Virus record (IMG/VR): IMGVR_UViG_3300032132_000748
DNA from: a virus
Taxonomy: Duplodnaviria > Caudoviricetes
DNA length: 64,000 nucleotides
Direction: 5' to 3' (one strand)
The notes below the pieces were generated by a model that saw only the letters and a program-made list of their open reading frames with translations, was not told where the DNA came from and made no database searches. Position 1 is the first letter of the stretch. Every line of letters starts with the position of its first letter. Of this stretch, positions 26,802 to 64,000 are shown in pieces. Position numbers and translations under genes: made by a program.

Positions 26802-26808
26802 ATTTCTC

Positions 26809-27582: not shown

Positions 27583-27585
27583 TAG

Positions 27586-27948: not shown

Positions 27949-27952
27949 TTTC

Positions 27953-35244: not shown

Positions 35245-35255
35245 GGGTGAAAATA

Positions 35256-37120: not shown

Positions 37121-37123
37121 ATT

Positions 37124-38599: not shown

Positions 38600-38648
38600 T
38601 ATTTCAACATTAGTACACACTTTTGTATAATAGACTAGAGGTGTATAA

Positions 38649-40639: not shown

Positions 40640-40648
40640 GAGGTACGG

Positions 40649-41014: not shown

Positions 41015-41354
41015 CTTTGGCCAAATAATGGCTATCTTTGACACAGTCAACAGAGCAGGTGCCTTAACCTCCCATACTATAATTCAGAACAAAAAACTTA
41101 AAGGTGAACAAAAACTTGCTAGCCAACGAATTTCTAGCCAAGAACGCCTATCCAAGCTCGGAATTGATTTTCAAGGGAAAGAGCTAGAAGCCAAACTAAT
41201 TATCTCTCAACGAAGAGATAAGTTATTTAAAGATATTGCCCTTTATGCTGGTATAGGTATTGGAACAATTGCTATGATAATAACAGTAGGGGTGCTTTTT
41301 GTTGGAGCAAAGAGAGAAGATCAATACGAATATATGGAGGAAATAGTAGTTTAA
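41007..41354 (+). CDS. Membrane protein, likely paralog of the two upstream genes
   Basis: SNFGQ; C-terminal TM plus acidic tail. Confidence 0.65.
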   Translation: MSNFGQIMAIFDTVNRAGALTSHTIIQNKKLKGEQKLASQRISSQERLSKLGIDFQGKELEAKLIISQRRDKLFKDIALYAGIGIGTIAMIITVGVLFVGAKREDQYEYMEEIVV

Positions 41355-41597
41355 ATGGCCTATTATGAAACATTTGGAGGGTTTGGAAAAGGTTTCGCAC
41401 CGCCGCCCCCACCACCACCAGAGGACCCTACCGCGCCTACCATCACTCCTGAAGAGGAGGCTGCAATATTGCAAGCTACTCTTCCCATCCCAGAGCCAGA
41501 ACCTAGTTTTCTGCGGCGTAATGCTGTTCCACTTTTTGTCGGGGGCGGGATTCTAGTCCTAGGTACCGTAGGCATGCTCTTAATGATCAGAGTATAA
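41355..41597 (+). CDS. Small Pro-rich tail-anchored protein
   Basis: FGGFGKGF; C-terminal TM. Confidence 0.65.
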   Translation: MAYYETFGGFGKGFAPPPPPPPEDPTAPTITPEEEAAILQATLPIPEPEPSFLRRNAVPLFVGGGILVLGTVGMLLMIRV

Positions 41598-41637: not shown

Positions 41638-42639
41638 ATGGCGTGGAAAGAGCAACTTTTATTTTACAAACAAAGCCCCTATCAGCGTATAGCTTTCTTC
41701 ACGGAGAGTGATGGATCTCTGTCACTAACTCTTGATGATTATTGGCAGTTTAATAGCAAATGTGAGCACATCTATCATGAATGCCTCTTCACAATGCCAG
41801 GACTTTTCCCTAAGAACCTCAAAAACGTTCTGATTCTTGGTGGTGGTGATGGTTTGGGTGTGCGAGAGCTGCTTAAATACAAAACAGTCGAACATATTGA
41901 TATGGTAGATCTTGACCCTGAGATGATCAAATTTGCTAAGACAAATATCTTCATGAAGAATCTAAATAAAGATAGCATGAATAACCCTAAATTAAAGGTA
42001 GAGGTTACTGACGCTAAAAAATGGTTGGCTAAGCCAGTAACTAGAAAATATGATCTAGTTATTGTAGATTTCCCGGATCCAACGTCGGACCTCTTATGGA
42101 CTCTATATACTAAAGAACTTTACGGACAAATAGCCAGCAGGCTATCTAAAACCGGTATAGTTGCTATTCAGTCATCTACATATAACACAAAGACATTTGA
42201 ATTAATTTATGACAAATTAGATAAGGTATTTCCGTTCATTTTGGGTTACCACACAGGAGCCTCATCTGTATTTTGTGGATTTTTCCTAACTTCCTTTACT
42301 CCGATCAAAATGCAGCGTCCTATTCCGGTAAGCTGTCGCTGGTTGAAACCAGAATTGATCAATATGATACTTGGGCTACCCGTTGCTAACTCTAAAACTA
42401 AAAAGAAAAAATCCAGGCAGATACTTGACCCCGACAAGCTGGTCCTCAGAGCAAAACCCCAACTCAAAGGTCCAGCTAGTTTAGGTGAGCTAGGTCAGCC
42501 AGACCCTAATTTTTTCCCAGATAAAAATCCCATTAACGTACCACAGGAAGGTCCTTCCTTGTTTGCCAGCCCTGTCGTTAAGGGAGGGCTTGCAGTAGCG
42601 TTCATTATTCCGTTACTCTTGAAGGTGATGGGTAAGTAA
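41638..42639 (+). CDS. speE: Spermidine synthase with C-terminal LGELG motif and TM
   Basis: VLILGGGDG, VDLDP, YDLVIVDFPDP, LYTKELY. Confidence 0.9.
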   Translation: MAWKEQLLFYKQSPYQRIAFFTESDGSLSLTLDDYWQFNSKCEHIYHECLFTMPGLFPKNLKNVLILGGGDGLGVRELLKYKTVEHIDMVDLDPEMIKFAKTNIFMKNLNKDSMNNPKLKVEVTDAKKWLAKPVTRKYDLVIVDFPDPTSDLLWTLYTKELYGQIASRLSKTGIVAIQSSTYNTKTFELIYDKLDKVFPFILGYHTGASSVFCGFFLTSFTPIKMQRPIPVSCRWLKPELINMILGLPVANSKTKKKKSRQILDPDKLVLRAKPQLKGPASLGELGQPDPNFFPDKNPINVPQEGPSLFASPVVKGGLAVAFIIPLLLKVMGK

Positions 42640-43010
42640 TGGAACAACAAGATATACATAATACTGAAGCAACCCACTACGTCGTAGATTTTTATCAAAT
42701 AAAAAACGGGTCCTTACTTGATGATATGGATTTTTGTCTTACTGCAGTAAAAGACGCGGTCAACGCGGCTGGTTGTGGTATTTTGAATGAATTTTCCCAT
42801 AAATTTCATCCCCAAGGAGTCAGCATCAATCTAACTCTATCTGAAAGTCACTGCGCTATTCATACTTGGCCGGAGAGGGGTTACTGCGCCATAGATTTGT
42901 ATGGGTGTGGTGACGTGGATCTTCAAGCAGGAATTGATCTTTTTGCGGAAAGGTTTCAACCGGGTAAATCTGTAGTTCAAAAAATTAAAAGAGGTCACGA
43001 GCATGATTAA
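42639..43010 (+). CDS. speD: S-adenosylmethionine decarboxylase proenzyme
   Basis: F.PQGVS, LSESHCAIHTWPE, D.Y.CG. Confidence 0.93.
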   Translation: MEQQDIHNTEATHYVVDFYQIKNGSLLDDMDFCLTAVKDAVNAAGCGILNEFSHKFHPQGVSINLTLSESHCAIHTWPERGYCAIDLYGCGDVDLQAGIDLFAERFQPGKSVVQKIKRGHEHD

Positions 43011-43410
43011 ATTCGATGATGCAAAGTCTGACGACGAAAAAAAGATCGAACGCTCCTCTGAAATACTCTCTCGTACTATCCCAGAACAAACTGAAGATGC
43101 AATGAGTGACTACACTGCCGTGTTAGCTATCCTTAGAAAAGGGAAAGATTGGAGATTTGAGCCTCTGGTAAAGATGCTTGAAGACGTTTACATCTATCCT
43201 CGCAGAAGTGCCCATAACGAACTTGTAAGTGAGCTAAATGATCTCAAAGAGACACTATTAGAAGAAAGAATACAGAGAGTTCTTTCAAGCAAAGAAGCTA
43301 GTAAGCATTCTCAAAAATTCTTAGGGGATAATAAGCCTGCTAGTAAGATTACTCTTTGGAGAGTCTTGGTTGTTGGGGCGCTGGCCTACCTATTGTTTGG
43401 GCGAAAATAG
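43003..43410 (+). CDS. Tail-anchored membrane protein
   Basis: LWRVLVVGALAYLLFGRK. Confidence 0.65.
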   Translation: MIKFDDAKSDDEKKIERSSEILSRTIPEQTEDAMSDYTAVLAILRKGKDWRFEPLVKMLEDVYIYPRRSAHNELVSELNDLKETLLEERIQRVLSSKEASKHSQKFLGDNKPASKITLWRVLVVGALAYLLFGRK

Positions 43411-43961
43411 TGAAAATACCGCGTAGTCCTCAAATCTTGCGCCCCCTACCTTATGCTTATGACGCCATAGAACCTGTTCTCAGTGCCGAAGCTATGCTTA
43501 TACATCACGTAAATCATCAAGGCGGTTATGTTAAAAAATTTAATAAGCTACTAAAGAATGGAGGATCAGAAGAAGATTTAGAATTTAATTACTCTGCCCA
43601 CATCCTACACACCTTATATTTTAACAACCTTGCCTCACCCCACTCTACCCACCCCGGACCAAAATTCCTTGCCAGCTTCCCCTCTGCTGAGAACTGTCTT
43701 CTTGAGATGCTTCAAGAAGCTTCAAACATTAAAGGCTCAGGCTGGGCTTTACTTGTGGAAGACAATAAGGGTCTTTCTATCAAATCAATCCCTAACCATG
43801 AACTTGGTCGAGTTGTAAATAAGTGTAAACCTATACTGGTATTAGACTTATGGGAACATGCCTGGTATCTAGATTATCAATCTGATAAAGCAGATTTTTT
43901 AGAATCTATTAAGAGTTGTATTAACTGGGATAAAGTAGAATCTCGTTTAGCACAAGTTTAA
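43410..43961 (+). CDS. Fe/Mn superoxide dismutase
   Basis: LPYAYDAIEP, HHVNHQGGYV, H.LH..YF, GSGW, DLWEHAWYLDY. Confidence 0.92.
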   Translation: MKIPRSPQILRPLPYAYDAIEPVLSAEAMLIHHVNHQGGYVKKFNKLLKNGGSEEDLEFNYSAHILHTLYFNNLASPHSTHPGPKFLASFPSAENCLLEMLQEASNIKGSGWALLVEDNKGLSIKSIPNHELGRVVNKCKPILVLDLWEHAWYLDYQSDKADFLESIKSCINWDKVESRLAQV

Positions 43962-43978: not shown

Positions 43979-44401
43979 ATGAGTAGATTCGGCGTAGTTC
44001 CAGACCCATACAGTGTATTTAATCCACCGGATTACTGGACACAAATGATTGACGACCCCACCCAGGTTCCGGTCCAAATTAACCCGTATGGTGGAGGATA
44101 TGGGCCTCAAGGTCCTTATCCCGGTTTTTATTACGGTCAACGCACGTTCACTCCTGAAGATATGCGTAGAGAAGCTCGCCGTAGAGCCGACTATATGGAT
44201 AGGCGCGCTGACGTATCAGAAGACCCTTCGCATAGATACCTTAACCCTGAAGGAAGACTAAAAGGCCCTGCTGGGTCAGTTCTTCGAGCTTTGAGAGCTA
44301 AAAAGAAGGCTCCTGCACAACAGGACATAGTAAAACAAATCCAAAAGAAAGTCATAACAACGGTTCTAATTGGAGCGGTGCTATCCGCACTATTAAAGTA
44401 A
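43979..44401 (+). CDS. Tail-anchored protein
   Basis: ATG 5 nt after TATAAT; hydrophobic C-tail. Confidence 0.65.
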   Translation: MSRFGVVPDPYSVFNPPDYWTQMIDDPTQVPVQINPYGGGYGPQGPYPGFYYGQRTFTPEDMRREARRRADYMDRRADVSEDPSHRYLNPEGRLKGPAGSVLRALRAKKKAPAQQDIVKQIQKKVITTVLIGAVLSALLK

Positions 44402-44402
44402 A

Positions 44403-44714
44403 ATGAAAATTGCGGCGGGGCGGAAAGAAGATCCGTCAGACTTCTCAGTTACCTACTCTATACAAGAAATACTAAGAAGAGCTACAAAAAAACTCAAGAT
44501 ACATGATAGAGGCATCCCCCTTACTTCGGATGTTTTTGGTAGGTTTCCTACTTTGGTAGGGCGGCTACGTCGATTTGGTAAGTGGAATAGGGACGGAGTT
44601 TCTCACGTAAAAGTGTTCTATGATCCCAACTACTATCATAGAAACGCCCATACTGTTCATCTGATGGATCCTATTCACATCTATGCGGTGTTAAAGTATG
44701 CAGGTATTAAGTAG
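44403..44714 (+). CDS. Hypothetical protein
   Basis: ORF in operon. Confidence 0.55.
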   Translation: MKIAAGRKEDPSDFSVTYSIQEILRRATKKLKIHDRGIPLTSDVFGRFPTLVGRLRRFGKWNRDGVSHVKVFYDPNYYHRNAHTVHLMDPIHIYAVLKYAGIK

Positions 44715-45255
44715 TTATTTTATTAACTATCCACTGCTCATCAGGCTTCTTCATCAGTTTTCCTTTAGATATAGTTTGTATGGAAGGTTGCCAAAGATCT
44801 ACTTGTTTTGACACAAAAATTGTATCAGCAGGCATACCATAGTCATATAATCTTTGTGCCATGTGTCGTAATCTGAGATTCAAATAATTTATGTTTGTGG
44901 TTTCAAGAAAATCAAAAACAACAACTGGTGCGTGGTGTTGTATAGTTTCTTCTGTGTGTTCAATTCCCGACATCTCCTGCTCAATGTCTGAATAGGTTAG
45001 TCGAGGTGAGCTATCTTTTGGATATACAATTCCATATTCTCTTTTGTCATCCATATCAAATATTTTATCTATGTGATGAGGATAGACCGAAAATTGTCCT
45101 ACATATAGATTATATTGACCATCGAAAGCGAAGATATGCCTAAATTTTGCATTTTCCCATTGGTTATGGGGGTTAATGTAAAATCCGATGCTACGGAGAA
45201 TCTCTCCTGGGGAATAATACCAGTTGAAAAGTTGACGTAGCTTATCTTTGTCCAC
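44707..45255 (-). CDS. Hypothetical protein
   Basis: ORF only. Confidence 0.6.
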   Translation of the reverse strand: MDKDKLRQLFNWYYSPGEILRSIGFYINPHNQWENAKFRHIFAFDGQYNLYVGQFSVYPHHIDKIFDMDDKREYGIVYPKDSSPRLTYSDIEQEMSGIEHTEETIQHHAPVVVFDFLETTNINYLNLRLRHMAQRLYDYGMPADTIFVSKQVDLWQPSIQTISKGKLMKKPDEQWIVNKITT

Positions 45256-45264
45256 GTCTATAAT

Positions 45265-45591
45265 TTAGACTTTTTTGCGGAGTAAAACCAGCCCTAAAAT
45301 GATAAGGCCGATAGTGGCGAGGCTGGTTTTTGTCTTTTTCTCGGTCTCAAGCTGTCCTAACTCTGTTAGAACGTCACGAGGAGGAAAGTGGCTATCAATA
45401 TAGTACTTATCTACAATAGATTCTGAATCTCCGTAACCTTGAAAAGTACTTCCAGTGTTTACTTTACGTCGAATCTTATTAACGAATCGCGTAAGATCAT
45501 ATTTTCCACGTAAGGATTTTCTAGATTCGTATTTTTTACTAAACTTCATCTCGTCCCTATTTTTTCTCTCAGCTCTATGCTTATATTTCAT
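45265..45591 (-). CDS. Basic tail-anchored protein
   Basis: FQGYGD, ELGQL; C-terminal TM. Confidence 0.7.
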   Translation of the reverse strand: MKYKHRAERKNRDEMKFSKKYESRKSLRGKYDLTRFVNKIRRKVNTGSTFQGYGDSESIVDKYYIDSHFPPRDVLTELGQLETEKKTKTSLATIGLIILGLVLLRKKV

Positions 45592-45911
45592 TAAGCCCCC
45601 TTTAGGCTCTTAACTCTAAAAATCATAGCCACTAACAGGGCAGCAAGAATTGTTTTTGTGCTAAATCCGTAGTATTCATCCGGAAAAATGGCACCTGTTT
45701 TAATTTGAGTGAGTAAGTCGTCTTCCATCCCAAAATCTCCTAATCCTTCTAGCTGTCCGGTAGCGCGCGCTGCGGTAAACGCAGTTCTTTCAATCTTATT
45801 ATGAAATTTACTTACTCCAGAGATTTTTGTTTCTCTATCAGCAAGAGCAACTCCTTTATGGAGTCTTTTCATGATATTTTTGTATTTCATAGCAGAGCCT
45901 GTTAATCTCAT
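45591..45911 (-). CDS. Basic tail-anchored protein
   Basis: LEGLGDFG; C-terminal TM. Confidence 0.7.
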   Translation of the reverse strand: MRLTGSAMKYKNIMKRLHKGVALADRETKISGVSKFHNKIERTAFTAARATGQLEGLGDFGMEDDLLTQIKTGAIFPDEYYGFSTKTILAALLVAMIFRVKSLKGA

Positions 45912-46888
45912 TAGTAACTCCTATTCCATCGATATGGATTTCTTCTAGCGTAGATTGAGGAATAAAGCCCGCTCTTAGGAAATAATCCTTCAGGGTTTCT
46001 TCTCCTTCTAGCGTAGATTGAGGAATAGAGACCATTCTTAGGAAATAATCCTTCGGGGTTTCTTCTCCTTCTTCGTGGGGCTCTTGGGGCTGCGGTTGGT
46101 GTGCGGCCCCAATCTTCAAGTTTTCTTCCTGCCGTCTCTGCGAGACGAGCGCCTTCCGTAGTTAAAGCTCGTCCAGTTACTCGCGCAGCACCTTTAACTC
46201 CTTCCATAAAGGAGTTTCTACGATACCTTTTATCCGGTTTTTTGCGAGTAGGATACATGGCGTCAAGCTCTCTGTCATGAGAGACAGGTCGTCCGCTATT
46301 AAAGCTCCATCCCGGATTACGGCGATACCTATCGGCTCCATAATCTCTTCTGTGTATTTTTGGTCGGCCACCTCTGAAACTCCATCCAGATATTTCTTCA
46401 TGGTCAAAATGCCTCTTTGGTCGATTTCCCGTAAAGCTCCACCCAGGGTTTCTACGATAGCTTCTAGCGCGCAGAGGGTTCCGTCTGCGGGTTCTTCTGC
46501 TATTCCAGGGGTTTCGCCTGCTATTGTGTCTACGTCGTCCCCAGGGGTTTCTACGGCGGCGTGAGTAGATACTATCGAATAACCCGTCGTCGCCCTGTAG
46601 GGGATTCTTTTTATAAAGCTTAGAGATTACATTTTTATAATGACTCTCATCTTTGAATTTATTATTTTTGTCGGCTAGAGGATCATACAGTGAAGGTCCC
46701 CAAGGGTTTCCTTCTGGGTCTGGATTCCTTCGGAAAGAAGATAAGCGGTCAAAATCTACATTTCTTCTGCGAAATGAAAGTAATCTACCGGGATCTAAAG
46801 AGTTACGTCGTCTAGATAGTCCAGAAGAGCGGGTTAGAGGTCGTGGGTGATTTCCCCATCTGTTATATCTACGTGCATATCTTCTCAT
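45911..46888 (-). CDS. Arg-rich RRNP-repeat protein (putative nucleoprotein)
   Basis: About a dozen RRN[PSV] repeats; internal 63-bp tandem duplication. Confidence 0.75.
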   Translation of the reverse strand: MRRYARRYNRWGNHPRPLTRSSGLSRRRNSLDPGRLLSFRRRNVDFDRLSSFRRNPDPEGNPWGPSLYDPLADKNNKFKDESHYKNVISKLYKKNPLQGDDGLFDSIYSRRRRNPWGRRRHNSRRNPWNSRRTRRRNPLRARSYRRNPGWSFTGNRPKRHFDHEEISGWSFRGGRPKIHRRDYGADRYRRNPGWSFNSGRPVSHDRELDAMYPTRKKPDKRYRRNSFMEGVKGAARVTGRALTTEGARLAETAGRKLEDWGRTPTAAPRAPRRRRRNPEGLFPKNGLYSSIYARRRRNPEGLFPKSGLYSSIYARRNPYRWNRSY

Positions 46889-46940
46889 GCATTGATTATA
46901 TCAATTGGTTAAGTAATTAACAAATAATTAGGTTAAGCTA

Positions 46941-47579
46941 TTACGCTTTATTAAGCAGCTTCCAAGCGGCAGCGGCAATAATGGCCCAGCCAAGGAGTTT
47001 AACTATTCCAGCAGGTTTTCCTTCACCGAAACCAGATAGCCCTTTGCTTTTCATGCTCTTCTTGTATTCTGCGGCTTCTTTTGCGTTAAGTTTTTTGCCG
47101 AACTGATCGAATAATGGATAACCTTTTCTAACTTTCATAGCTGTTCCTACATAAGTAGAAACACCTGTAGCATTTTTGTTATCTTTAACAACCTTTTTAA
47201 TAACAGAATCCAACCCCGGCATATTCTTTGCATAGAGGGAGTAGAGTTTTTCTAGGTCCTCAGACTTAATAAATTCAATAGGATAATTAGTCATCAAGTG
47301 TTTAATGACTTCAAGACGAACCTTTAATTTTCTATATCTTTTACCCGCATCAGAATCGTAACCCAGGACTTTCATTTGCTGAGCGGCTGCTTCAACTTGC
47401 ATTGAAACACGATCAGCTTCTCTTTTCATATTAACTGTAAACTCTTTACGACCAAGATTGTGCGTTAGAGGATACATCTTATATGATGATACTTGTGTAG
47501 TCTCTTCTGGGACATCAACGTTAACGTTGAATCCTTGTCCAGTCGAGTATCTATAAGTTGCGTGACGATAAGTCTCCAT
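46941..47579 (-). CDS. Tail-anchored protein
   Basis: LSGFGE then C-terminal TM. Confidence 0.7.
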   Translation of the reverse strand: METYRHATYRYSTGQGFNVNVDVPEETTQVSSYKMYPLTHNLGRKEFTVNMKREADRVSMQVEAAAQQMKVLGYDSDAGKRYRKLKVRLEVIKHLMTNYPIEFIKSEDLEKLYSLYAKNMPGLDSVIKKVVKDNKNATGVSTYVGTAMKVRKGYPLFDQFGKKLNAKEAAEYKKSMKSKGLSGFGEGKPAGIVKLLGWAIIAAAAWKLLNKA

Positions 47580-47625
47580 AGTCCCTCATTAACAGTATAT
47601 CAAATTAGAGTAAATATTAGGCTAA

Positions 47626-48765
47626 TTAAGCTCTAACTTTTTTAACCCGTTTTGTTCTTTTGACAATGGGTATTAATCTTCCCGGTTGACTATCCTTGGC
47701 TTTGGTTCGGGTCTTGGCTTTAGCTGGTTTAGAAGGTTTCATCGGTTTCTTTGTAGTAACTTCTTTATTTACAGGTGCTTTCTTTTTTCTTCTAGGTTTG
47801 GGTAGGGAGGGTCCTGCGCTAATTATGGGAGTTTCCACTACAGGGGCTGGTTTTGGTTTTCTTTTCCGCTTCCTTTTTGGTTTTGGTTTTTCTACAGAGG
47901 GACTCTCATCTTTATTAGATCTTGTTAGTTTGATAATCGCGTTTGGGTCAATGCCTCTTGGTTCTGGTAGTTGAGGTAAGTCAACCTTAACTTTTGGTTT
48001 AGTACCTATAACATGAAAAGCCGAATCCATGTTACGCATGAGAGCGCGCTCTTCCTGATCCCATTCAGTAGACTTGTCCATTTCTGGCTTTTTCTTAACC
48101 TTTCGGGGTTCAACTGTTTGTTTACCCATCACCAGGGCTTCGTAATCACCCATGAAATCGGGATCCTTACTCGCCTGAGTGAAGGCTCTATATCGTTGAA
48201 TAGATTTGATCGTTTTATCAAAACCGCTTTCTTTTTCTTCGGGATTTTCTTTCTTTGTTTCATCCTTTGTTAAGAACTTATACATCCAAAAAAGGCCGCC
48301 GACAGATGATGCTAGTGCAGTTCCTAGTAGGAGTGTCTTTTTCTTTGATTTAAGCCAATTAACAACCATTAAAGGCCCATTCAAGCCACTAAACGCACTT
48401 GCTTTGACCATTTGTTTCTTATTACTCTCTTTTTTGGGAGGTTTCGGAGCTGGTTGTACTTTTTGTGGAACTGGTTTAGGCGGTTCAGGCGCTATTTTTG
48501 CGCTTTTAAGGACTACATATAAATCTCTATATTTCTGGTCTAAATTAGACACCTGTTGAGGATGTCCTTGGTATTGTTGTAGTTCAGTTGCTTGTTTTTT
48601 CCTCATTGTGCGAGCAATGGCATCCCTCGCAAAGTGGGCATCAGCAGGTGGGGTAAAAGCCATCATTCTTATGATGGTGTCTTTGAGGGTTACGTAGTCA
48701 TCTACAGTCTGGATGACTTTCAGCCCTTCTCTAAAGGTTATAAGTGTTTCGCGACTTGGCATCAT
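47626..48765 (-). CDS. Lys/Pro-rich membrane protein
   Basis: FSGLNG then central TM; basic C-tail. Confidence 0.7.
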   Translation of the reverse strand: MMPSRETLITFREGLKVIQTVDDYVTLKDTIIRMMAFTPPADAHFARDAIARTMRKKQATELQQYQGHPQQVSNLDQKYRDLYVVLKSAKIAPEPPKPVPQKVQPAPKPPKKESNKKQMVKASAFSGLNGPLMVVNWLKSKKKTLLLGTALASSVGGLFWMYKFLTKDETKKENPEEKESGFDKTIKSIQRYRAFTQASKDPDFMGDYEALVMGKQTVEPRKVKKKPEMDKSTEWDQEERALMRNMDSAFHVIGTKPKVKVDLPQLPEPRGIDPNAIIKLTRSNKDESPSVEKPKPKRKRKRKPKPAPVVETPIISAGPSLPKPRRKKKAPVNKEVTTKKPMKPSKPAKAKTRTKAKDSQPGRLIPIVKRTKRVKKVRA

Positions 48766-49061
48766 TTACTCCGAGACTTTATTTTAGCAAACTTTCTCCA
48801 GACCTTGAAACCGATGTACACTAAAGTCATAGTTCCTACTACTGTCAAAGTGCTTCTTACAGGAAAATCTTTTACCGCAGAAAAAACATTCTTAAAGTCA
48901 TCCCGAAGACCGGATAATTCATTGGCTGCCATTTCTCCGAAATTTATTCCACCGAAGTTCATTCCCATAAAAGGGTTACCTGGATTCTCAGAAGAGGGTT
49001 GCTCAGCGGCATCTGGCTCCTCCGTGTAATAATCACTCGATTTGTAAACTTTGTCTGCCAT
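48762..49061 (-). CDS. Small membrane protein
   Basis: FGGINFGE; C-terminal TM. Confidence 0.65.
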   Translation of the reverse strand: MADKVYKSSDYYTEEPDAAEQPSSENPGNPFMGMNFGGINFGEMAANELSGLRDDFKNVFSAVKDFPVRSTLTVVGTMTLVYIGFKVWRKFAKIKSRSK

Positions 49062-49073
49062 CTTTCTATTATA

Positions 49074-49916
49074 TCAATTTTTTTCAAGACCATTAGTCAA
49101 TCGGTCAAAGTCTTTCTCTAGTTTATAAAGTCTGCGAGCTAGTCTGCTACTCATCTCTCCGTAGACATCAGAAAATTTGATATCTACAATTGTTCCATCA
49201 TCAAATTCAAGACTAGTTTCATGCTCACCTTCGTGATCATAATTCAAACCCATCGTACACCCACCGATCGATCTGCTGAGCAATTTTAGGTCTTTAGCCG
49301 TTTTGATTATTAATTTCTCTTCACTTCTCTGAAGAACATTAACAACATGCCCTTCTTTGGGTTCCTCATGGTCTTCAAAACTACCCCACTCAGCCATTAT
49401 CCACTCGGAAATGAAATCATCGCTGCTTATATAGTCTCCTGCAACCGGACGTTCGAGAGTAATAGTGTCTTGCCCAAGCCCCCAGGAATTTGAGGCGTTT
49501 CTTTCTGTTGCTTCTATTTTTGTGTCTTTTAAGAACGAAAGATCTATTTCCGTAGCTATAAGAGAGTCTAATGCGCGCCTTGATTCTTCATCTCTTCCTG
49601 CGCGTTTGAGCGCAGTTGCCCACGAAAGAATATCCCCAACAGATCCAGTTGTCCTAGCTCGTCTCTCTAGAGAACGAAGATCAGTGTCTGCATTTCGCCT
49701 ATAAACAGGATTTCTTCTTTTGGAAGTTGCTGGTTCAGGGAGAGCTTTGACTGCAAGGATATACCACTGATCTAAGTAGTATCGAAGATCCTTTTCCATA
49801 CTCTCTTGATATTTATCAGGATCCCAGCCTTTTTTGACTAAGATTTTCTCGACAATATCTGGGTCTTTACTCTTTTCGGAAGCCCAAGAGGTTACGTGTT
49901 GCTTCCAATAATTCAT
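49074..49916 (-). CDS. Hypothetical protein with RRNP/RRN motifs
   Basis: SKRRNPVYRRNADTDLRSLERRA. Confidence 0.65.
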   Translation of the reverse strand: MNYWKQHVTSWASEKSKDPDIVEKILVKKGWDPDKYQESMEKDLRYYLDQWYILAVKALPEPATSKRRNPVYRRNADTDLRSLERRARTTGSVGDILSWATALKRAGRDEESRRALDSLIATEIDLSFLKDTKIEATERNASNSWGLGQDTITLERPVAGDYISSDDFISEWIMAEWGSFEDHEEPKEGHVVNVLQRSEEKLIIKTAKDLKLLSRSIGGCTMGLNYDHEGEHETSLEFDDGTIVDIKFSDVYGEMSSRLARRLYKLEKDFDRLTNGLEKN

Positions 49917-50815
49917 TACTTACAACCGAAAAGTAAGAGTGCTCCTAGAGTAGCGCCTGCTGCAACTGCAGCTAATGCAAGTTTAGGATCTACCGATTTA
50001 GCAGTGGCCGGAGCCTTTCCTGCGTTTGTTAAAGCAGTTGCTGCTTCTTTTTCTATCGCCCCTTCAGTTGCTGCAACAACGTCGTCTGCGAGGTAACTAT
50101 ATCCATTCATTGCCCTATCGTTAGTAGGGTTATAAGAGGTTGAATTTATCTTATCCATACCTTTGGATAGTGACTTATTATGCATCATAGCGATTTTATC
50201 TACCTGATGCTCTCTATTGAGGTTTTCTCTGGCTTTTGGAGGTAACTTGATGCTAGCCTTGTGCATCAGCTTCTGAATTCCTTCAGATAACTGTCTCATT
50301 TGTTTTTTCTGTAAAGCTACTGCTTGAAAGCAACGGTTAAAGTCGGAATCTATGTCGTCTAATCTTAGTCCGATTTCTTTACGCATTCCGATTTTTTTAT
50401 GTCGGTCGGCAAGAGCACTTTTAAGTGTTTCTCCGATTAATTGATAGTTAACAGTTGTCTCATGTAGAACGCGTTTACACCTATCTAGGGTATACCCAAT
50501 TCCATCATTTTGGGTTGCCAGAGTTCTGTGCATATTCTCAAGAAATTCTAGTCTTTCTCTGTCCTTAAATGTGACGATACTTTCTAGGCGCTTCAACCCT
50601 ACGGTTGCCATATCACCTTTCTTGGTTAATTCTCTATGTGCGGATGCCAGTTTATCATATTTGGCTCTGTGATCACGAAGGGTTTCGGTAATCCATTTCA
50701 AAACTTCTGTCGGATTTGGCGGGACTAGACGCCTATCCTGAGCAGCAGATTCTTGTTTAGCTAGATCACCTAATAAATCTTCATATCCGTTAAACCCATT
50801 AGGTATTATTGTCAT
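49916..50815 (-). CDS. Coiled-coil tail-anchored protein
   Basis: FNGYE, MNGYS; C-terminal TM; GAGG RBS. Confidence 0.7.
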   Translation of the reverse strand: MTIIPNGFNGYEDLLGDLAKQESAAQDRRLVPPNPTEVLKWITETLRDHRAKYDKLASAHRELTKKGDMATVGLKRLESIVTFKDRERLEFLENMHRTLATQNDGIGYTLDRCKRVLHETTVNYQLIGETLKSALADRHKKIGMRKEIGLRLDDIDSDFNRCFQAVALQKKQMRQLSEGIQKLMHKASIKLPPKARENLNREHQVDKIAMMHNKSLSKGMDKINSTSYNPTNDRAMNGYSYLADDVVAATEGAIEKEAATALTNAGKAPATAKSVDPKLALAAVAAGATLGALLLFGCK

Positions 50816-50879
50816 ATGGAACCTCAACTGTAATTATAACAAAAGGCTTGCTGTAATCGGATAAATAGATTTTTAATTC

Positions 50880-51188
50880 CTACGAAGCTGCTTGCTTCTT
50901 TCGTCTCATGGACCAGGCAAAACCTAAAAGGAAGAGTCCAATAAGCCATGTAGGGAAACCTTTGTATTTTTCAGAGAATAATGCGGCCTTCTTAGGGCCA
51001 GGAACAGTAGGTTTCTCGTCGTCATCGTCATCGTCATCGTCTTCAGCCTCAGCCTGTCCGAAGTAACCCCCTAAACCACCTAACCGAATATCGGTTCTTT
51101 GGGTGGGCGGTGATGATCCTCGTTTGCTATAAAGATCATTATAGATACCATCTTTAGAGTAAATTGATTTAAATAATCCTTTAGACAT
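50880..51188 (-). CDS. Tail-anchored protein
   Basis: LGGLGGYFGQ, poly-Asp, C-terminal TM. Confidence 0.7.
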   Translation of the reverse strand: MSKGLFKSIYSKDGIYNDLYSKRGSSPPTQRTDIRLGGLGGYFGQAEAEDDDDDDDDEKPTVPGPKKAALFSEKYKGFPTWLIGLFLLGFAWSMRRKKQAAS

Positions 51189-51589
51189 TAGAGCCCCCTC
51201 AATGATCTTGCGGCAAAATACATCCTAAAAGTTGTCTGTGCTGCTCCGCCGTTAACATATACAACTCTAGCAAAAGGGGCCACTATTTGCACTTGTAATG
51301 CATTGTCTGTAATATTGCCCCCTGTGATAGCATGAGTTGATATTGTAGTGTGTGTTGTCGATAGTGCTCCTGAAGGAAAATCAGCAGGAGATAGTCCTTG
51401 TTCTATGATGATTCCATCAGGAGAAGCACTATCAACGTCTGAGAAGGCAAACCCTGATATGTGTGCGTAACCTGCTACAGTGATTACTTCTCCGAAGAAT
51501 GAGGCCCCTGCGCCGAGAATATCGGCATCAACGGCTGCGCCCACAATAAGTGTATCAATCTGAGAAAGGTGAACTTTATTACTACTCAT
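51188..51589 (-). CDS. Small beta-rich putative virion protein (jelly-roll-like)
   Basis: Beta-strand pattern; APFARVVYVNGGAAQTTF. Confidence 0.5.
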   Translation of the reverse strand: MSSNKVHLSQIDTLIVGAAVDADILGAGASFFGEVITVAGYAHISGFAFSDVDSASPDGIIIEQGLSPADFPSGALSTTHTTISTHAITGGNITDNALQVQIVAPFARVVYVNGGAAQTTFRMYFAARSLRGL

Positions 51590-51601
51590 TTATCTCCTTT
51601 A

Positions 51602-52342
51602 TTAGCGGTTACGGAATACATCGTCTAGTTCATCAATAGGGAACATATGACCAAATATTACTGCTTTAACTGCAATATCTCTTGCTGCAATTGCTGTTGT
51701 GGCAATGCAGTTTTTTACACTTACCTGAATCGGCGTATTTTCGTTAACTATAGCAAACATCTTTGTGTTGTTATCTAAAGAAGATATCATGCAGGGGAAG
51801 TTGCCATAGTTGAAAACGGGTGTCCCACCCGCTTGGACACTCCAGGCTATGTCGTCAGGAGAGCCGTCTGGTTTCTGGAATGCAGTGCTATCACCGATCC
51901 ACTGACCGAAGCTTGTAATAACCGCAGAAAAACCTGATGGGATGTCTAGCGTCCCACTAGACCCAGTTTGGGGTGATCCAGGTGATATAACTGTAGTTGC
52001 ATCAACAAATAGATCAACAAAAGTTGTGGGATCTGGAGGAAGCAGAGCAGAACCAAAAGCAAAGAATCGCTGGGAACGGAACGATTCAAAGTTTGCTCTT
52101 GGTAAGTAGTTGATAGCCGCAAAGCTAACCTGATTACCGCTTAGAGAGGGTGGTATCGGTTCAACGAAGGATCTATAAGATCCTCCAGATGTTTGATAAA
52201 CATCACCCTCAAATCCCGGTAAGAAAGTTCCATCGGGCAAGGATACTGGACCCATGCCACGAAGGTCCTCAGGGAGTTCTCCGAACTCCCCAAAGCCTGA
52301 AAAATCAGGTAACTCTCTTTCAGTAAATTCCCGATCTGCCAT
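51602..52342 (-). CDS. Putative single jelly-roll capsid protein
   Basis: FSGFGEFGE leader; IPSGFSAVI, DDIAWSV..GGTPVFNY, AVIFGHMFP strand pattern. Confidence 0.5.
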   Translation of the reverse strand: MADREFTERELPDFSGFGEFGELPEDLRGMGPVSLPDGTFLPGFEGDVYQTSGGSYRSFVEPIPPSLSGNQVSFAAINYLPRANFESFRSQRFFAFGSALLPPDPTTFVDLFVDATTVISPGSPQTGSSGTLDIPSGFSAVITSFGQWIGDSTAFQKPDGSPDDIAWSVQAGGTPVFNYGNFPCMISSLDNNTKMFAIVNENTPIQVSVKNCIATTAIAARDIAVKAVIFGHMFPIDELDDVFRNR

Positions 52343-52347
52343 AAAAA

Positions 52348-52956
52348 TTATCCAGTAGTGGTCTTAAGATCTTCAACGTGATAGACCTTATAACCGATCA
52401 GACCAAGACGAACTTCGTTAGAAGCAAGTGAGAGGTCAGTTAGTTCTATTGTTATTGTTGAAGCACGAGCAATAAAGCGTGGCTTCGGCAAAATTAGCGG
52501 TAGCTGTGCTGTTCCTGCACCGATATCGGAGTGAACAGCAATGTTTGACCACTGACGATCGTTGGACGAATCTCGAACCAGGAACGCAAAAGGGGCTGTA
52601 GCTACACGAACCAACTTAGTTAGATAGAAGTCGGCTTCACGGGTAATTGAGATCGTGGTTGTTGCTGTTCCGCCTGAAGCGAGAGTTATAGGACTAGTAG
52701 CGTAAATGAAATACTCATCGAAGTTACCAGATTCGATCTTTCTGATCTTTTCTGCTAGCTTGAAGTTATCTTTACGTAGTCTTTTATTTTCTTCCTGCAT
52801 AGATAGCAGAATTTCTTGTAGAGTTTGTAGGTTTAAGCTTCCGCCTGCAGCGGCACCGCCGCCTGCGTCTGCTTGACCGAAGCCATTACCACCACCATAT
52901 CCACTAAATTGTGGTTGCTGTGGTTGACCCCAGTTTCCAATATTATTGTAAGGCAT
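52348..52956 (-). CDS. Putative single jelly-roll major capsid protein (Helvetiavirae-like)
   Basis: YFIY...LASGGTATTTISITREADFYLTKL...RDSSNDRQWSN...GTAQLPLILPKPRFIARASTITIEL...LIGYKVY. Confidence 0.6.
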   Translation of the reverse strand: MPYNNIGNWGQPQQPQFSGYGGGNGFGQADAGGGAAAGGSLNLQTLQEILLSMQEENKRLRKDNFKLAEKIRKIESGNFDEYFIYATSPITLASGGTATTTISITREADFYLTKLVRVATAPFAFLVRDSSNDRQWSNIAVHSDIGAGTAQLPLILPKPRFIARASTITIELTDLSLASNEVRLGLIGYKVYHVEDLKTTTG

Positions 52957-53089
52957 GTTATTTTCCTGATTCTTATTCGATTATCTCGAACGTTTTTAAT
53001 TCAACCTGTGTATCATTAGTTGGCCACTAATTCAGGCTAGTTTAATTAGATCAAATTATTGATTGTAAAACAAGTTTCTAATTTGTACA

Positions 53090-53125
53090 TAAAAATAGCC
53101 CAGAAGTATTTCTGGGCTATTTTTA
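53090..53125 (-). terminator. Intrinsic terminator
   Basis: TAAAAATAGCCCAGAA/TTCTGGGCTATTTTTA. Confidence 0.75.
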
Positions 53126-53143: not shown

Positions 53144-53731
53144 TTAGCGACGGCGGCGGCGAGCCTTCTTACGACCACGTTTCTTGGCCTTGCCTACCTT
53201 AGCGAGTTTCTTGATTCCCTTTGACTTAAGCCACTTACGGCCAACCTTTGACTTACGCAACTTTCTAACTGCGCGGTTGAAAACCTTACGTGCTGCGATG
53301 GTTCTACCCTTTCCACGACTAATGCAAGCCTTAGCTGAGCGGACTGTTGGTGCCTTACGAGTCTTAGGGCAACGGCTGCTCTTACGCTTACGTGCGGAAA
53401 GCTTAGGGCGTCCGACCTTACGTTTGCGTCCGCGCTTCTTGGCCTTAGCCTTACGACGCTTCATCTTGCGCTTCTTACCGGCCATTACGCCATTCTTAGT
53501 CTTCCAAACAGAGAGAAGCTTTCCTCTCTTACCCTTAAGATAAAGAACAATTTTTCCTGCTTTTCTAGCTTTAACTAGATCTTTGCCTACAGCACTTTTA
53601 ACAAGAACGGAACCTTGACCCTTCTTGAAGGGCTTGTTGCATCGAACGTTACCTTTTTTATCAATCCAGCAACTGGATTTAATCTTGGGACGCTTTGTCT
53701 TAAGCGCAGCGACTTTTGTTTTCTTTGCCAT
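53144..53731 (-). CDS. Extremely basic histone/protamine-like protein
   Basis: K/R dominated with almost no acidic residues; GAGGAG RBS; own terminator. Confidence 0.75.
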   Translation of the reverse strand: MAKKTKVAALKTKRPKIKSSCWIDKKGNVRCNKPFKKGQGSVLVKSAVGKDLVKARKAGKIVLYLKGKRGKLLSVWKTKNGVMAGKKRKMKRRKAKAKKRGRKRKVGRPKLSARKRKSSRCPKTRKAPTVRSAKACISRGKGRTIAARKVFNRAVRKLRKSKVGRKWLKSKGIKKLAKVGKAKKRGRKKARRRRR

Positions 53732-55290: not shown

Positions 55291-56331
55291 TTAAAAGACA
55301 AGCACTTCACCCCAGCGGTGAAGATGCTTGTCTAACATATAATTGCTATTAATGTATTTCATTGCGTTCTTGATTAACTTCTCTCTGAGAGCCTCGTTCT
55401 CTATGAGAAGTGACAAACACGTAAACCATTCTTTTTCGTTTGAGGCTAAAAACCCATCCTCTCCGTGGTCTATATGCTTGTAGGGGCCATAGTTTGATCC
55501 TATAAAAGCCGCCTCCATCAAAGTCATCTGGCTGTATTTCAAATTAGATTTTGATGCGTTAAAAACATGTGGGCGAAGAGGTGCTATTGCGATATCTGCA
55601 TTTATATCTTGAATTGTGTTTAAGTAATCGCCAAAAGGAACTGCAGGGTGGCATATAGCTCCAGGTATGAGTTCTTGAAGAGTTTTCTCGTCTAAAGTGC
55701 TTTGAAGATGTATTTCAATCTTATCTCCATATTCATCACTTATTTTTTGAAGAGGGCCTTTTACAAGCTCCAAGTCTGGTAGATGACTTGAACTCCCAGT
55801 CCAGAGTATTCTAATTTTTTCATTCTTAGTTTTTGGGATATCCCGACGCATCTCGTCTGAGACACAGTTAGGGATTACTTTTATATTTTTATTCCATGTC
55901 TGATAAAGAGCTTTGAGTTCATTTGTCGTAACAATTACCATATCTGCAAGTTGTATGAACATTTGCACATAAATGCTTCTCATCTCTGGAGGAAAGCTAT
56001 ATGTCTCTCCGGTAGTTTTATCTATAATTTCAGTTTGCTCAGGAGAGTCCTCAGGAATATTGAGATAGTCGTCATCAAAATCGATGATAATTTTCTTTCC
56101 TTTTGCTTTCCAATCAGCATAGAACTGGTAAGCCGAAGGGGCATACAGGCACTGTATATAGAGTATCTCTGCCCACTCATACTGCTCTAGCTGATTTTCC
56201 TTTTCTCCGAGAAATTGGACAGGATGTCCTTGTTCCATCAGACTATACAGGGGTTGAATTACCCTGTGATAGGAAGTGGCGTTATTATCTAGGGGGACGC
56301 CTAGGACTCGACGTTTACTCTTAATTAGCAT
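55291..56331 (-). CDS. GT-B glycosyltransferase
   Basis: IDFDDD, VIPN, DIAIAPL...FN.SKSNLK. Confidence 0.85.
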   Translation of the reverse strand: MLIKSKRRVLGVPLDNNATSYHRVIQPLYSLMEQGHPVQFLGEKENQLEQYEWAEILYIQCLYAPSAYQFYADWKAKGKKIIIDFDDDYLNIPEDSPEQTEIIDKTTGETYSFPPEMRSIYVQMFIQLADMVIVTTNELKALYQTWNKNIKVIPNCVSDEMRRDIPKTKNEKIRILWTGSSSHLPDLELVKGPLQKISDEYGDKIEIHLQSTLDEKTLQELIPGAICHPAVPFGDYLNTIQDINADIAIAPLRPHVFNASKSNLKYSQMTLMEAAFIGSNYGPYKHIDHGEDGFLASNEKEWFTCLSLLIENEALREKLIKNAMKYINSNYMLDKHLHRWGEVLVF

Positions 56332-56368
56332 ACTCTAACGTTACGATAATTTCTTAACGTCGCAAGAC

Positions 56369-57202
56369 CTACTTACCTACTGGTCTATGTCTAAACCCTA
56401 CGTGATATACAATATAACCTGTCATTACTTCCTTATCTTCTAACAAGAGAGTAGAAAAATTTCGTTCTACTCCTATAATCACCCCGTATCTTAATGCTCT
56501 ATTCAATTCAGCTATCTGCTTCTTCGCCATCTCCTCACGCTCTTCTCCAGTTAGGTCCTCACGGGGATGTTTCATCCCGATAGCATATCTATCAACCCAC
56601 CTAATATCAGGAATATCATAAGTGACCATACTATAGGTTTGATCGATGCTTGGTCCGTGAAGAGGTTCTCTTTGTAAAATTAATAATCCATTATTTTTTC
56701 TTTCGTTAAAAACAATTTCCCAATGATTATTTTTTTCTAAAAACTCAAGAACTGCATCCATTATTCCAGGAGAATTTCCATCTTCTCCCCTACTGGCGAA
56801 GGCATAGGAACTAACAATCACTAAATATTTAGTAACGCTACCTGCGTGCTTCAATAATTCTTGTTTTAGTTGCGAATAGCTGTGATAAGTATCTAGAACC
56901 AGCATTTCGGTTTGTTCGATCTGAATCGAAAGGGGGTCACCTATTCTTACCTTTAAATGTGTTCTTCCAGCAGACTCGGGTAATTTTTTAGCAAGAGCAT
57001 CTATGATATTTTGATTTTTCCCATAGGCTATGAACATTGGTGGTTGTCCCGCCATTATGGAAATACATACCCCAGAGGAATTCAGCCCTAATTCCGTAAC
57101 ATGTTGACATCTTGATGCGAACTCACGAATAGTAGGGCAATGCATAAATACGTCACTTACTTTATTGCATGCCTCCGCATATAATTCATCTAAACTTGCC
57201 AC
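56369..57202 (-). CDS. Methyltransferase-like (Methyltransf_24-like) protein plus C-terminal domain
   Basis: VTELG, LDTYHSYSQLKQEL..H, NNGLLIL. Confidence 0.6.
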   Translation of the reverse strand: MASLDELYAEACNKVSDVFMHCPTIREFASRCQHVTELGLNSSGVCISIMAGQPPMFIAYGKNQNIIDALAKKLPESAGRTHLKVRIGDPLSIQIEQTEMLVLDTYHSYSQLKQELLKHAGSVTKYLVIVSSYAFASRGEDGNSPGIMDAVLEFLEKNNHWEIVFNERKNNGLLILQREPLHGPSIDQTYSMVTYDIPDIRWVDRYAIGMKHPREDLTGEEREEMAKKQIAELNRALRYGVIIGVERNFSTLLLEDKEVMTGYIVYHVGFRHRPVGK

Positions 57203-57237: not shown

Positions 57238-59406
57238 ATGGCAGTAAATTTCAATATTGGTGACACAATTATAGTCAACCAAACATACGTACAAAATATT
57301 TTAGCTCCAAGACCCTCCACTAATGAGAGAAAAGCCCTTCTTGAACACCTAGGTAGGCTAGGAGATAGCAGTTTACTCGTTAGTAAATTTTTTCCTGTCG
57401 TCCCTACGATGAGAGTTACAAAAATAGAGGATAACTCCTCTAAAGTTTTGAGTTTTGAGACTGAGAATGATTTGAACAGTTGCTTCACGTTTGTAAGTGA
57501 TTTTACCATGACTACAAACAAGGTTGTTAACGTTCAAAACGGGACAACTGGCGTAATTAAGAAAGGATCCTTTGTCTATCAAACCGGATTCATCGGGTCC
57601 AACCCACAGAAAGCAGTTATTGCTTCCCCGAAGGCCAACCAAATAGCTGGAGCCGCCATATTTGGTATTGCTATACAGGATATTTTTGCTGGTAGCACCG
57701 GAAACGTTTTAGTAGAAGGTACTTTTAAAGGATTAGACACTCGTGCCGCCAATACTCAGGCAGAGTGTTATGTAGGAGTAGAGGGCGGCCAAGCTGTCTC
57801 AATTCCTGGTGGAGACTTTCACAAGAAAGGAATAGTTATAGACGCAGCAAGAAATGGCACCGTTTTTCTCCCGCGCCAACCTTCCGGTCCCTATAACTGC
57901 TTCGAAGTAAGGCAGCTTGATGGTCTTTGTAATCATAAGGAAAATCATGATCAGGGTCTCGCAGGTCACACGTATCGTAGAGTAATACCAGCTAAATATG
58001 CAGATGGGAAATCAGTTCCTTTCGTAGCGGCTACCAGAACAAATCCTAGAAATATAAGTAATTTAATTTTTGATAAGGGTGCTGACAAGCCAAACCACTT
58101 AAATGCCACAGACTTTGTTTGGTTGTGGGGTCAATTCCTAGATCATGATATTGCCCTAACTAAAGATACTGCGGAATATTTTCCTATAGCTGTTCCTGCG
58201 GACGACACCGTCTTTACTCCCGGATCATCTTTGCCTTTTGTGAGATCGGAATTTGATTCTGATACAGGAACTACGAACGTCCGCCAACAAGTTAACCAAC
58301 AGAGTGCCTATATAGACGCGTCCAATGTTTATGGAGCTGATCCTGTTCGCGAAGCAGCTTTGCGAGCTAATGATGGTTCTGGTAAGCTTCGCACCAGCTC
58401 AGGAGATTTACTTCCTTTCAACACAACACTTCTTGATAACGCCCCAAATAATCACGACCCCCAATACTTCCTGGCAGGAGATATCAGAGCCAACGAACAT
58501 CTTTTGCTTACGGCCTTACACACTCTTTGGGTTAGGGAGCACAATCGTCTTGCTGTTGAAATAAAATCAGTTAACAGCCATTTAACCGGGGATCAGGTCT
58601 ATGAAGTGACTAGACGAAAGGTTACGGCCTTGATTCAAGCTATCACGTATAATGAATTTTTGCCAATTTTATTGGGCTCTGATGCTATTAGTAAGTATAC
58701 CGGATATGACTCAAGCACCAATCCGCAGATAATGAACTCATTTGCTACAGCATTCTATAGATTAGGACACGCCATGGTTTCTTCTACTCTACAGCGTCTA
58801 GATAGCAACTTAGCTAGAATTTCATTAGGACACTCTAAATTAAGTGATTCTTTCTTCCGCCCAGACAGATTAACTGAGGGCGGGGGTATGGAACCTCTAC
58901 TTCGAGGAGCATCGCAACAAGTATGTCAAGCAATCACCCCTGGGACTGCAAATGAGCTTAGGAATCTTCTCTTTGCCAGTTCAGGTACCGGCGGCCAAGA
59001 CTTAGCTGCAAGAAACATTCAACGAGGTAGAGATCACGGGCTACCGGACCTAAACACTTGTAGAAAAGCTCTTGGTTTGGATACTCACAGGTCGTTTAGC
59101 AGTATCACTTCGGATTCTACTATCAAAGCAAACCTAGCTCTTGCTTACTCTAGCCTTAATGGAATAGATGCATGGGTCGGTGCTTTGGCAGAAGATGTTG
59201 ATGATGCCGGTGGCTTGGTTGGTTCAACAATTAAAAGATCGTGTAAGCTTCAGTTTGAAGCTCTAAGAGACGGCGATCGTTTTTGGTATGAGTGTCTCTT
59301 TGCTGGTGATTTGCTTGCGGAAATTAACAATACTAAGTTGTCAGATGTTATTCGTAGAAACACCACTATCGGTAGTGAGCTACAAGATAATGTGTTCATT
59401 AAGTAA
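57238..59406 (+). CDS. Animal-type heme peroxidase with N-terminal extension
   Basis: WGQFLDHD, GDIRANE, WVREHN, FYRLGH, NIQRGRDHG, GDRFWY. Confidence 0.93.
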   Translation: MAVNFNIGDTIIVNQTYVQNILAPRPSTNERKALLEHLGRLGDSSLLVSKFFPVVPTMRVTKIEDNSSKVLSFETENDLNSCFTFVSDFTMTTNKVVNVQNGTTGVIKKGSFVYQTGFIGSNPQKAVIASPKANQIAGAAIFGIAIQDIFAGSTGNVLVEGTFKGLDTRAANTQAECYVGVEGGQAVSIPGGDFHKKGIVIDAARNGTVFLPRQPSGPYNCFEVRQLDGLCNHKENHDQGLAGHTYRRVIPAKYADGKSVPFVAATRTNPRNISNLIFDKGADKPNHLNATDFVWLWGQFLDHDIALTKDTAEYFPIAVPADDTVFTPGSSLPFVRSEFDSDTGTTNVRQQVNQQSAYIDASNVYGADPVREAALRANDGSGKLRTSSGDLLPFNTTLLDNAPNNHDPQYFLAGDIRANEHLLLTALHTLWVREHNRLAVEIKSVNSHLTGDQVYEVTRRKVTALIQAITYNEFLPILLGSDAISKYTGYDSSTNPQIMNSFATAFYRLGHAMVSSTLQRLDSNLARISLGHSKLSDSFFRPDRLTEGGGMEPLLRGASQQVCQAITPGTANELRNLLFASSGTGGQDLAARNIQRGRDHGLPDLNTCRKALGLDTHRSFSSITSDSTIKANLALAYSSLNGIDAWVGALAEDVDDAGGLVGSTIKRSCKLQFEALRDGDRFWYECLFAGDLLAEINNTKLSDVIRRNTTIGSELQDNVFIK

Positions 59407-62697: not shown

Positions 62698-64000
62698 TTA
62701 TTCTTCGCTTTCTTCACTAACTACGTCGGCTTCAATGACGTCATCATCAGCAACTGTCTCTTCAGTGGTTTCTGATTCGGAATTTGCTTGCTCAGCGTTT
62801 GCATACAGCTCTTGGGCAATTTCATGTTGTAGCGTCATTAATGAGTTACAAGCGTCTTCAATTGCTTCCATCGAATCCCCATCTCGTGCTTCCTTAAGCC
62901 GTTCTAGTAAAGATTTAATCTCTTCATCACGGCCCAGTAGTTGCTCAGGGGCTTCTTCGATTTGCTGTTCAACAGTATCAATTACTTGATCAGCCTTGTT
63001 TTTTGACTCAACAAAAGCAACGCGCTGTGCATCTTCTTCTGCATATTGCTCAGCTTCTTCCTTCATTCTCTTGATGTCGTCGTCTGAGAACCCAGTATTG
63101 GCTTCGATTGTAATGTGCTGCTCTCGTCCCGTTCCTAGATCCTTAGCTGATACATTTAAGATACCATCAGGGTTAATATCAAAAGCCACTTCAATCTTTG
63201 GGATCCCTTTAGGGGCAGGCGGAATTTGGTCCAACCGGAACACACCAAGAAGTCTGTTATCCTCTGCCATCTTTCTCTCACCCTGATAAACTTTAACATC
63301 TACGGCTGTTTGATTGTGACTAAAGGTAGTGAAGGTCTCTTTTTTGCCAGAAGGGATAGTGGTATTTCTGTCAATCATTACTGTCATGACACCACCTGCG
63401 GTTTCAACACCTAACGATAGGGGAGTTACATCCAATAAGAGCATATCAGTTTTATCTCCAGATAAAACTGCGCCCTGGACTGCAGCACCCATAGCAACGA
63501 CTTCGTCCGGGTTAACGGACTTATTTAGGTCCTTGCCACCAAAAAACTCCTTAACAGCATCTTGGACAGCAGGAATTCGCGTTGATCCACCGACCATGAT
63601 AATTTCGTCGATATCGGTGATGCTATACTTTGCATCCTTTAAGGCTTTCTCTAGTGGAATTTTAGTTCTGTCAATCAAGCTCTTAGTTAGAGAATCAAAT
63701 TTGGCTCTCGTAACATCGACTTCCAGGTGTAGTGGGTGTCCTCCATCTCCTTGAGTGACAAAAGGCAGGTTTACCTTAGTTGACTTTGAGTTGGATAACT
63801 CACATTTTGCTTTTTCGCAAGCTTCCTTAAGTCTTTGGAGGGCTAACTTATCCTTTCGGAGATCTATTCCACCGGAAGATTTCTTAAACTCATCCGCAAC
63901 AAAATCAATAAGAACCTGGTCAAAGTTATCGCCGCCAAGATGTGTGTCACCGTTAGTTGACTTAACCTCAACAATTCCATCACCAACCTCTAGGACTGAA
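62698..64000 (-). CDS. dnaK: DnaK, second copy, 5' part outside the window
   Basis: [13 protein letters not shown] at the edge, [25 protein letters not shown]. Confidence 0.95.

Follow-up and report, generated by a model that had tools for sequence, protein, structure and literature searches.

Single jelly-roll genes on an 859-kb metagenomic contig suggest a giant tailless bacterial virus related to SSIP-1

Introduction

What kind of particle would be built from neighbouring single jelly-roll proteins encoded by a very large genome? The question is raised by three minus-strand open reading frames (ORFs) at 51188-52956 of a 64,000-nucleotide stretch of IMG/VR record IMGVR_UViG_3300032132_000748, hereafter called the window. 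These ORFs share one orientation, are separated by gaps of 5 and 12 nt and encode proteins of 202, 246 and 133 amino acids (aa). A first-pass annotation had attributed them to a giant tailless bacterial virus with an internal membrane, the first two proteins being paired major capsid proteins of the Helvetiavirae type. The very large genome found support: an 858,992-bp metagenomic contig (ENA ERZ27248692 k141_839137) contains the window. The sequence readable in total amounted to 112,764 bp (13.1% of the contig, the other ~87% being unread); it is cited below by window position or by locus (L numbers), L001 being identical to window 42348-62956. The gene order of the jelly-roll locus was also present on contigs of 318 and 599 kb. 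We conclude that the element is probably a giant tailless jelly-roll virus in which the 202/246-aa pair are minor proteins. Its closest reference virus is SSIP-1, a cultured 44-kb tailless phage with a membrane-lined capsid.

Folds and self-association of the 202-aa and 246-aa proteins

The 202-aa protein (52348-52956, minus strand) consists of a Gly/Gln leader with FG motifs, a coiled coil at about residues 43-78 and a single jelly roll at residues 80-192. Its AlphaFold2 model is an all-beta sandwich with a mean predicted local distance difference test (pLDDT) of 89.4 over residues 66-202. In the 246-aa protein (51602-52342, minus strand), an FG-motif leader (residues 1-85) is followed by a single jelly roll at about residues 88-235; its model is also an all-beta sandwich, with values mostly around 90 over residues 91-235 and a disordered N-terminal stretch of 85 aa. 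Both models can be aligned with single jelly rolls of viral and cellular proteins, so that the presence of two neighbouring proteins of this fold, proposed from the sequence alone, is borne out. Foldseek searches against the PDB and BFVD returned generic jelly rolls only. For both proteins the best structural match was residues 39-173 of the penton-sized chain 6h82_b, and the VP17 and HCIV-1 chains ranked lower. The identity of 6h82_b as the HHIV-2 penton VP9 was judged by this residue range and fits it, because the first 40 residues of VP9 are disordered; in HCIV-1, the N-terminal helix of VP9 contributes to a coiled coil of five helices at the membrane (PMC6414509). The architecture of the 202-aa protein, an N-terminal helix followed by a barrel, and its best structural match both fit VP9.

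No homology links the two proteins (hhalign probability 0.5%). Neither they nor the 133-aa protein gave any Pfam, PHROG or PDB sequence match, and deep-alignment searches were likewise without meaningful result. No relative of the capsid families was detected in scans of viral contigs, and tblastn against a phage collection was also empty. Sequence matches numbered 54 for the 202-aa protein, itself included, and 59 for the 246-aa protein. A profile search with the former collected 1063 representatives at E<=0.001, and 93 of the 145 family members examined carry two copies of its domain. Of 12 local genes compared between this contig and the related locus L005, that of the 202-aa protein is conserved best (89.5% against 45-67% for the others). 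The same contig encodes, ~440 kb away, a 259-aa paralogue which is 69% identical over the domain. This paralogue (L003:10001-10780, record ~666 kb) sits among several proteins of 700-1300 aa with many helix-turn-helix repeats and a DEAD-box helicase.

Self-association of the 202-aa protein was supported by a four-copy prediction, which scored 0.70 against 0.00 for the best control, with a contact agreement of at least 92% and a pLDDT of at least 76. Of the solved pairs, 20 of 30 attained the mark applied, as did 1 of 23 single chains, counts which are only roughly valid for four copies. The confident interface runs head-to-tail between barrels, strand 80-86 packing against 134-161. Such an interface would suit a ring as well as a lattice, leaves pentamer and hexamer undistinguished and may reflect likeness to solved structures. 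If the element is a giant tailless jelly-roll virus, we lean towards a penton role for the 202-aa protein.

Relationship to SSIP-1

The affiliation to tailless viruses with an internal membrane found support in sequence, with SSIP-1 taking the place of SH1 or P23-77 as nearest virus. Among 370 SSIP-1 ORFs and reversed decoys, the profile of the 202-aa domain ranked the SSIP-1 structural protein gp47 first (E 3.7e-5). A transglutaminase-like gene of the contig matched SSIP-1 gp34 (E 3e-11).

The third link was provided by two genes in tandem, encoding proteins of 189 and 185 aa with 85% identity, which lie 11.6-12.8 kb past the window end (L013:5306-5875 and 5990-6547; record 200,422-201,663). 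The profile of the tandem family ranked gp46 (E 0.013) and gp45 (E 0.32) first and second of 370 ORFs and decoys, and its comparison with the gp46/gp45 pair gave an hhalign probability of 81.9% (E 1.1e-5). SSIP-1 structural homologues are thus present for gp34, gp45/46 and gp47, the capsid links being weak but top-ranked against decoys. SSIP-1 is reported to possess major capsid proteins of two kinds (PMC6356626), which we infer to be the paralogues gp45 and gp46. In three short contigs (L036, E 5e-20; L035, E 1e-5; L008, E 0.03), a homologue of the capsid candidate directly precedes a two-domain gp47-like gene, which is followed by a further gene, as in the SSIP-1 order gp45/46-47-48. A contiguous cluster of the gp44-gp48 type is absent on the present contig, where the gp47-like gene lies ~23 kb from the capsid pair. 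No homologue of SSIP-1 gp40 (a Walker A protein), gp44 or gp48 was detected in the loci examined.

Several differences separate the element from SSIP-1. The genome is ~20 times larger here, the gp47 homologue has one domain plus a coiled coil as against the ~256 aa of gp47, and the tandem pair is 85% identical whereas gp45 and gp46 have diverged. Both encode small membrane proteins bearing G[LM]G motifs, and such motifs are also found in SSIP-1 gp34, gp37, gp53 and ORF36. They might serve the transglutaminase-like enzyme as a signal for maturation or sorting. Many low-complexity proteins of the window (26298-28339, 38126-41597 and 45265-50827) bear FG, LG or YGG motifs, RRNP repeats (45911-46888) or a hydrophobic helix at the C-terminus.

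The tandem genes as candidate major capsid genes

The tandem pair shows the most extreme codon bias measured. C-ending NNY codons account for 37/40 (93%) and 30/41 (73%) in its two genes, for 20/38 (53%) and 27/58 (47%) in the 202/246-aa pair and for 33% in background genes (185-aa versus 202-aa gene, p=8e-5). Three relatives moreover keep the tandem pair at 90-94% identity, their DnaK being at 72-77%. Because of this conservation, the codon bias and the relation to gp45/46, the tandem pair is likely the major capsid protein and the 202-aa and 246-aa proteins minor ones of vertex type; these two are probably corner pieces and not the main shell protein. No PDB sequence match was obtained for the tandem pair.

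A divergent third copy of the family was found at L013:14933-15682 (E 1e-19). The tandem genes end a co-oriented block made of a 933-aa protein, the transglutaminase-like gene, membrane-anchored proteins and a basic 317-aa protein. The 933-aa coiled-coil protein (L033:6073-8874) has a conserved GGGxY motif domain and is weakly similar to the gene preceding the transglutaminase in the small contig L008 (E 4e-4); it may be a conserved morphogenesis factor. On a bacterial-looking contig (L031:9926-10426, Ga0268299_1000056), a short ORF has a signal-peptide-like leader followed by N- and C-terminal parts, and no others, of the capsid candidate (68% identical); it is either a captured fragment or an assembly artefact.

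Search for head-tail and packaging genes

Neither terminase, portal, HK97 capsid nor tail gene was found in the window when unannotated ORFs were scanned against PHROG and evident enzymes were judged by sequence. Together with the Walker A scan, this result upholds the corresponding statement of the first-pass annotation. Forty-six unannotated proteins gave PHROG matches to glycosyltransferases or to families of unknown function only. Among window ORFs of at least 150 aa, a genuine Walker A motif is present in DnaX only, that of a peroxidase being due to chance. Over the whole 112,764 bp, no HK97 major capsid protein, portal, terminase large subunit or other head-tail hallmark was detected, nor any FtsK-HerA packaging ATPase; Walker A motifs were confined to DnaX, an APS kinase and the chance peroxidase motif, and the DEAD-box helicase is annotated in L003. 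'Terminase' PHROG matches in L003 were rejected as helix-turn-helix repeats of 30-70 aa. One collagen fibre matched tail-fibre profiles, mainly via its repeat.

Interpretation and alternatives

A role of the 202-aa and 246-aa proteins as the major capsid pair itself, in the manner of VP16/VP17 of P23-77 or VP4/VP7 of SH1, now appears highly improbable. The pair is non-homologous, its top match is a penton-sized chain, and its sequence relative is gp47, the neighbour of gp45/gp46 in SSIP-1. Better candidates are offered by a separate paralogous pair ~12 kb outside the window, which is related to gp45/gp46 and has much stronger expression signals. In the 313-kb relative L038, furthermore, the 202-aa homologue has no 246-aa partner nearby. 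The element could also be a tailed megaphage (Caudoviricetes) with its head-tail genes in the unread 87%, the jelly rolls serving as decoration, turret, cement or a captured SSIP-1-like module. We regard this as unlikely: a coherent SSIP-1-like set (capsid pair, gp47-like, gp34-like and basic membrane proteins) is kept across many large contigs more strongly than DnaK and has the most extreme codon bias, the apparent terminases are helix-turn-helix repeats, and the 113 kb which take in the jelly-roll module hold no head-tail gene.

A Borg-like giant extrachromosomal element or megaplasmid, whose jelly rolls would form shells, vesicle coats or surface arrays and maybe not package the whole genome, is distinctly unlikely. 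Borgs, giant extrachromosomal elements of Methanoperedens, also have very large genomes and carry several single jelly-roll (SJR) capsid-like clusters, most like HCIV-1, with unresolved packaging machinery (PMC12660748). The absence of a packaging ATPase in the 112,764 bp, the dispersal of structural genes (the 202-aa paralogue being ~440 kb off) and the lack of relatives in the viral contig collection agree with such an element. On the other hand, the module is homologous to and co-linear with that of the cultured virus SSIP-1 and of small virus-like contigs. The dense tRNA cluster and isolated host-like genes also speak against it, such traits being typical of large phages. Compared by description, Borgs are archaeal and linear, whereas the element here has bacterial-type cargo (DnaK, DnaX, IF3-C). 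Borgs nonetheless show that giant elements can carry SJR capsid-like genes.

The giant tailless jelly-roll virus is the preferred explanation. It is somewhat probable that giant size (contigs of 599 and 859 kb) was attained independently by a lineage of SSIP-1-like single jelly-roll, membrane-containing bacterial viruses, possibly with motor-free assembly around condensed DNA. Such an uncultured bacterial virus of ~860 kb would follow the SSIP-1 plan, with a tailless icosahedral shell of vertical single jelly rolls over an internal membrane. The tandem 185/189-aa proteins would form the bulk lattice coating the membrane vesicle. Rings of the 202-aa protein would plug the five-fold vertices, the N-terminal coiled coil pointing inward to the membrane as in the HCIV-1 penton VP9, and the 246-aa protein, possibly the 133-aa protein, and fibres would be further minor vertex or spike parts. 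Proteins with a C-terminal hydrophobic anchor are present, and many tail-anchored proteins may stud or build the membrane. The DNA may be compacted by basic proteins, such as that encoded at 53144-53731, and a packaging motor may be dispensable, as in SPV1, which lacks one (PMC8812541). Computation supports the folds, the homology to SSIP-1 and small relatives, the gene order, the codon bias and the predicted self-association; particle formation, the penton role, the internal membrane and the lack of a head-tail module in the unread 87% are our inferences.

Comparison with known systems

The build looks like that of SSIP-1 and of the Helvetiavirae, a group now placed in the realm Singelaviria (PMC12714852); we take this as a likeness of build and not as membership. 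With HHIV-2, HCIV-1, SH1 and P23-77 the element has in common single jelly rolls, the 6h82_b top match, a VP9-like helix-plus-barrel protein and two paralogous major-capsid candidates. On the other side, sequence similarity was undetectable, no FtsK-HerA ATPase was seen in the 13% read here, and there is no sign of a two-tier major protein of VP4/VP17 type; sphaerolipovirid genomes measure 28-31 kb (PMC12643093). With the Portogloboviridae there is a structural resemblance only. SPV1, their representative, has an archaeal host and a small genome.

All described megaphages are, to our knowledge, tailed. BF3 (841 kb), described in 2025 as the largest known phage, is classed in the Caudoviricetes. 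Megaphages such as BF3 and Lak/Grandevirales share with the present element the genome size class, tRNA arrays and host-like cargo; they are however Caudoviricetes, the GC content of BF3 is 55% as against ~41% here, and the part read here holds no Caudoviricetes hallmark. According to a 2026 review, 8 of 10 virus realms have genomes of at most ~60 kb and giants are found in the Varidnaviria and Duplodnaviria (PMC13598248). A single jelly-roll clade with genomes of 0.6-0.86 Mb would break both rules, the size limit of realms and the tailed nature of megaphages. If the proposal is true, gigantism would extend outside the Varidnaviria and Duplodnaviria on contigs of 599 and 859 kb, the latter longer than the 841-kb record phage, and this would be by far the largest virus of SSIP-1 build, provided that the unread 87% is without a tailed-phage head. 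With neither portal nor tail, the packaging and delivery of so large a genome would also call for an explanation; our estimate, obtained by enlarging SSIP-1 in proportion to volume, is a particle of very roughly 270 nm. Literature searches yielded no description of the clade, which would escape hallmark-based virus detection because Pfam, PHROG and the viral contigs gave no match to its capsid genes in this analysis.

Neighbouring genes and cargo

The third gene of the jelly-roll operon (51188-51589, minus strand) encodes a beta-rich 133-aa protein without PHROG, Pfam, PDB or phage match and without relative in the scan of viral contigs; its orthologue at the same position in L005 is 55.5% identical. 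The start codon of the next gene (50880-51188, minus strand) overlaps its stop codon. The 102-aa product, with a C-terminal hydrophobic helix and a basic tail, is a candidate membrane protein, and its position is kept in a relative (61% identity). Upstream of the operon, a perfect 16-bp inverted repeat (53090-53125) is followed by a sigma70-like site (53089-53062; both within 53062-53125, minus strand). This site is weak evidence, because promoter-like matches were not enriched over shuffles (9 found; shuffle mean 5.8, sd 2.7). The Lys/Arg-rich 195-aa protein at 53144-53731 (minus strand), syntenic in L005/L006, is by its composition a candidate DNA-condensing core protein.

As to the jumbo-phage-like cargo announced earlier, DnaK and DnaX (29278-30399) were found, IF3 is present as a stand-alone C-terminal domain only (3697-3972), and the count of 33+ tRNA genes was slightly high, the union of ARAGORN (23) and Rfam (26) giving 30. 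The tRNA cluster at 98-8463 is interleaved with HNH-like ORFs, an IscU-like gene (7022-7429) and an RNA ligase (8374-9399). A full DnaK gene (24462-26309) and a second one, which runs off the window end (62698-64000; full gene L013:17528-19426), lie ~36 kb apart, and the relative MDTD01135090.1 (L016, L030) likewise has two.

The cumulative GC skew peaks and reverses at about 44000-46000, where genes switch from mostly plus to mostly minus strand. We consider it unlikely that this is a small cellular genome, as the window lacks rRNA and the called genes seen include no ribosomal operon. Two host hints, the one GTDB match, to an Anaerolineaceae metagenome-assembled genome (12-kb contig), and a Bathyarchaeota label on P0011, were rejected as probably mis-binned.

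A large block for surface glycosylation and modification (10709-22264, 35247-38095 and 55291-57202), whose genes were identified mostly by eye, comprises aminotransferases, methyl-, sulfo- and glycosyltransferases and a nucleotide-sugar dehydratase, and recalls the capsid glycosylation of giant viruses. A spermidine synthase with a C-terminal membrane anchor adjoins an AdoMet decarboxylase and a superoxide dismutase (41638-43961); polyamines could help to condense the genome. Finally, an animal-type haem peroxidase (57238-59406; Pfam E 2.5e-140) and the collagen fibre (L013:13065-14936) have a common N-terminal region of ~120 aa (27% identity, E 8e-9), which may be a virion-anchoring domain and would then display the peroxidase on the particle.
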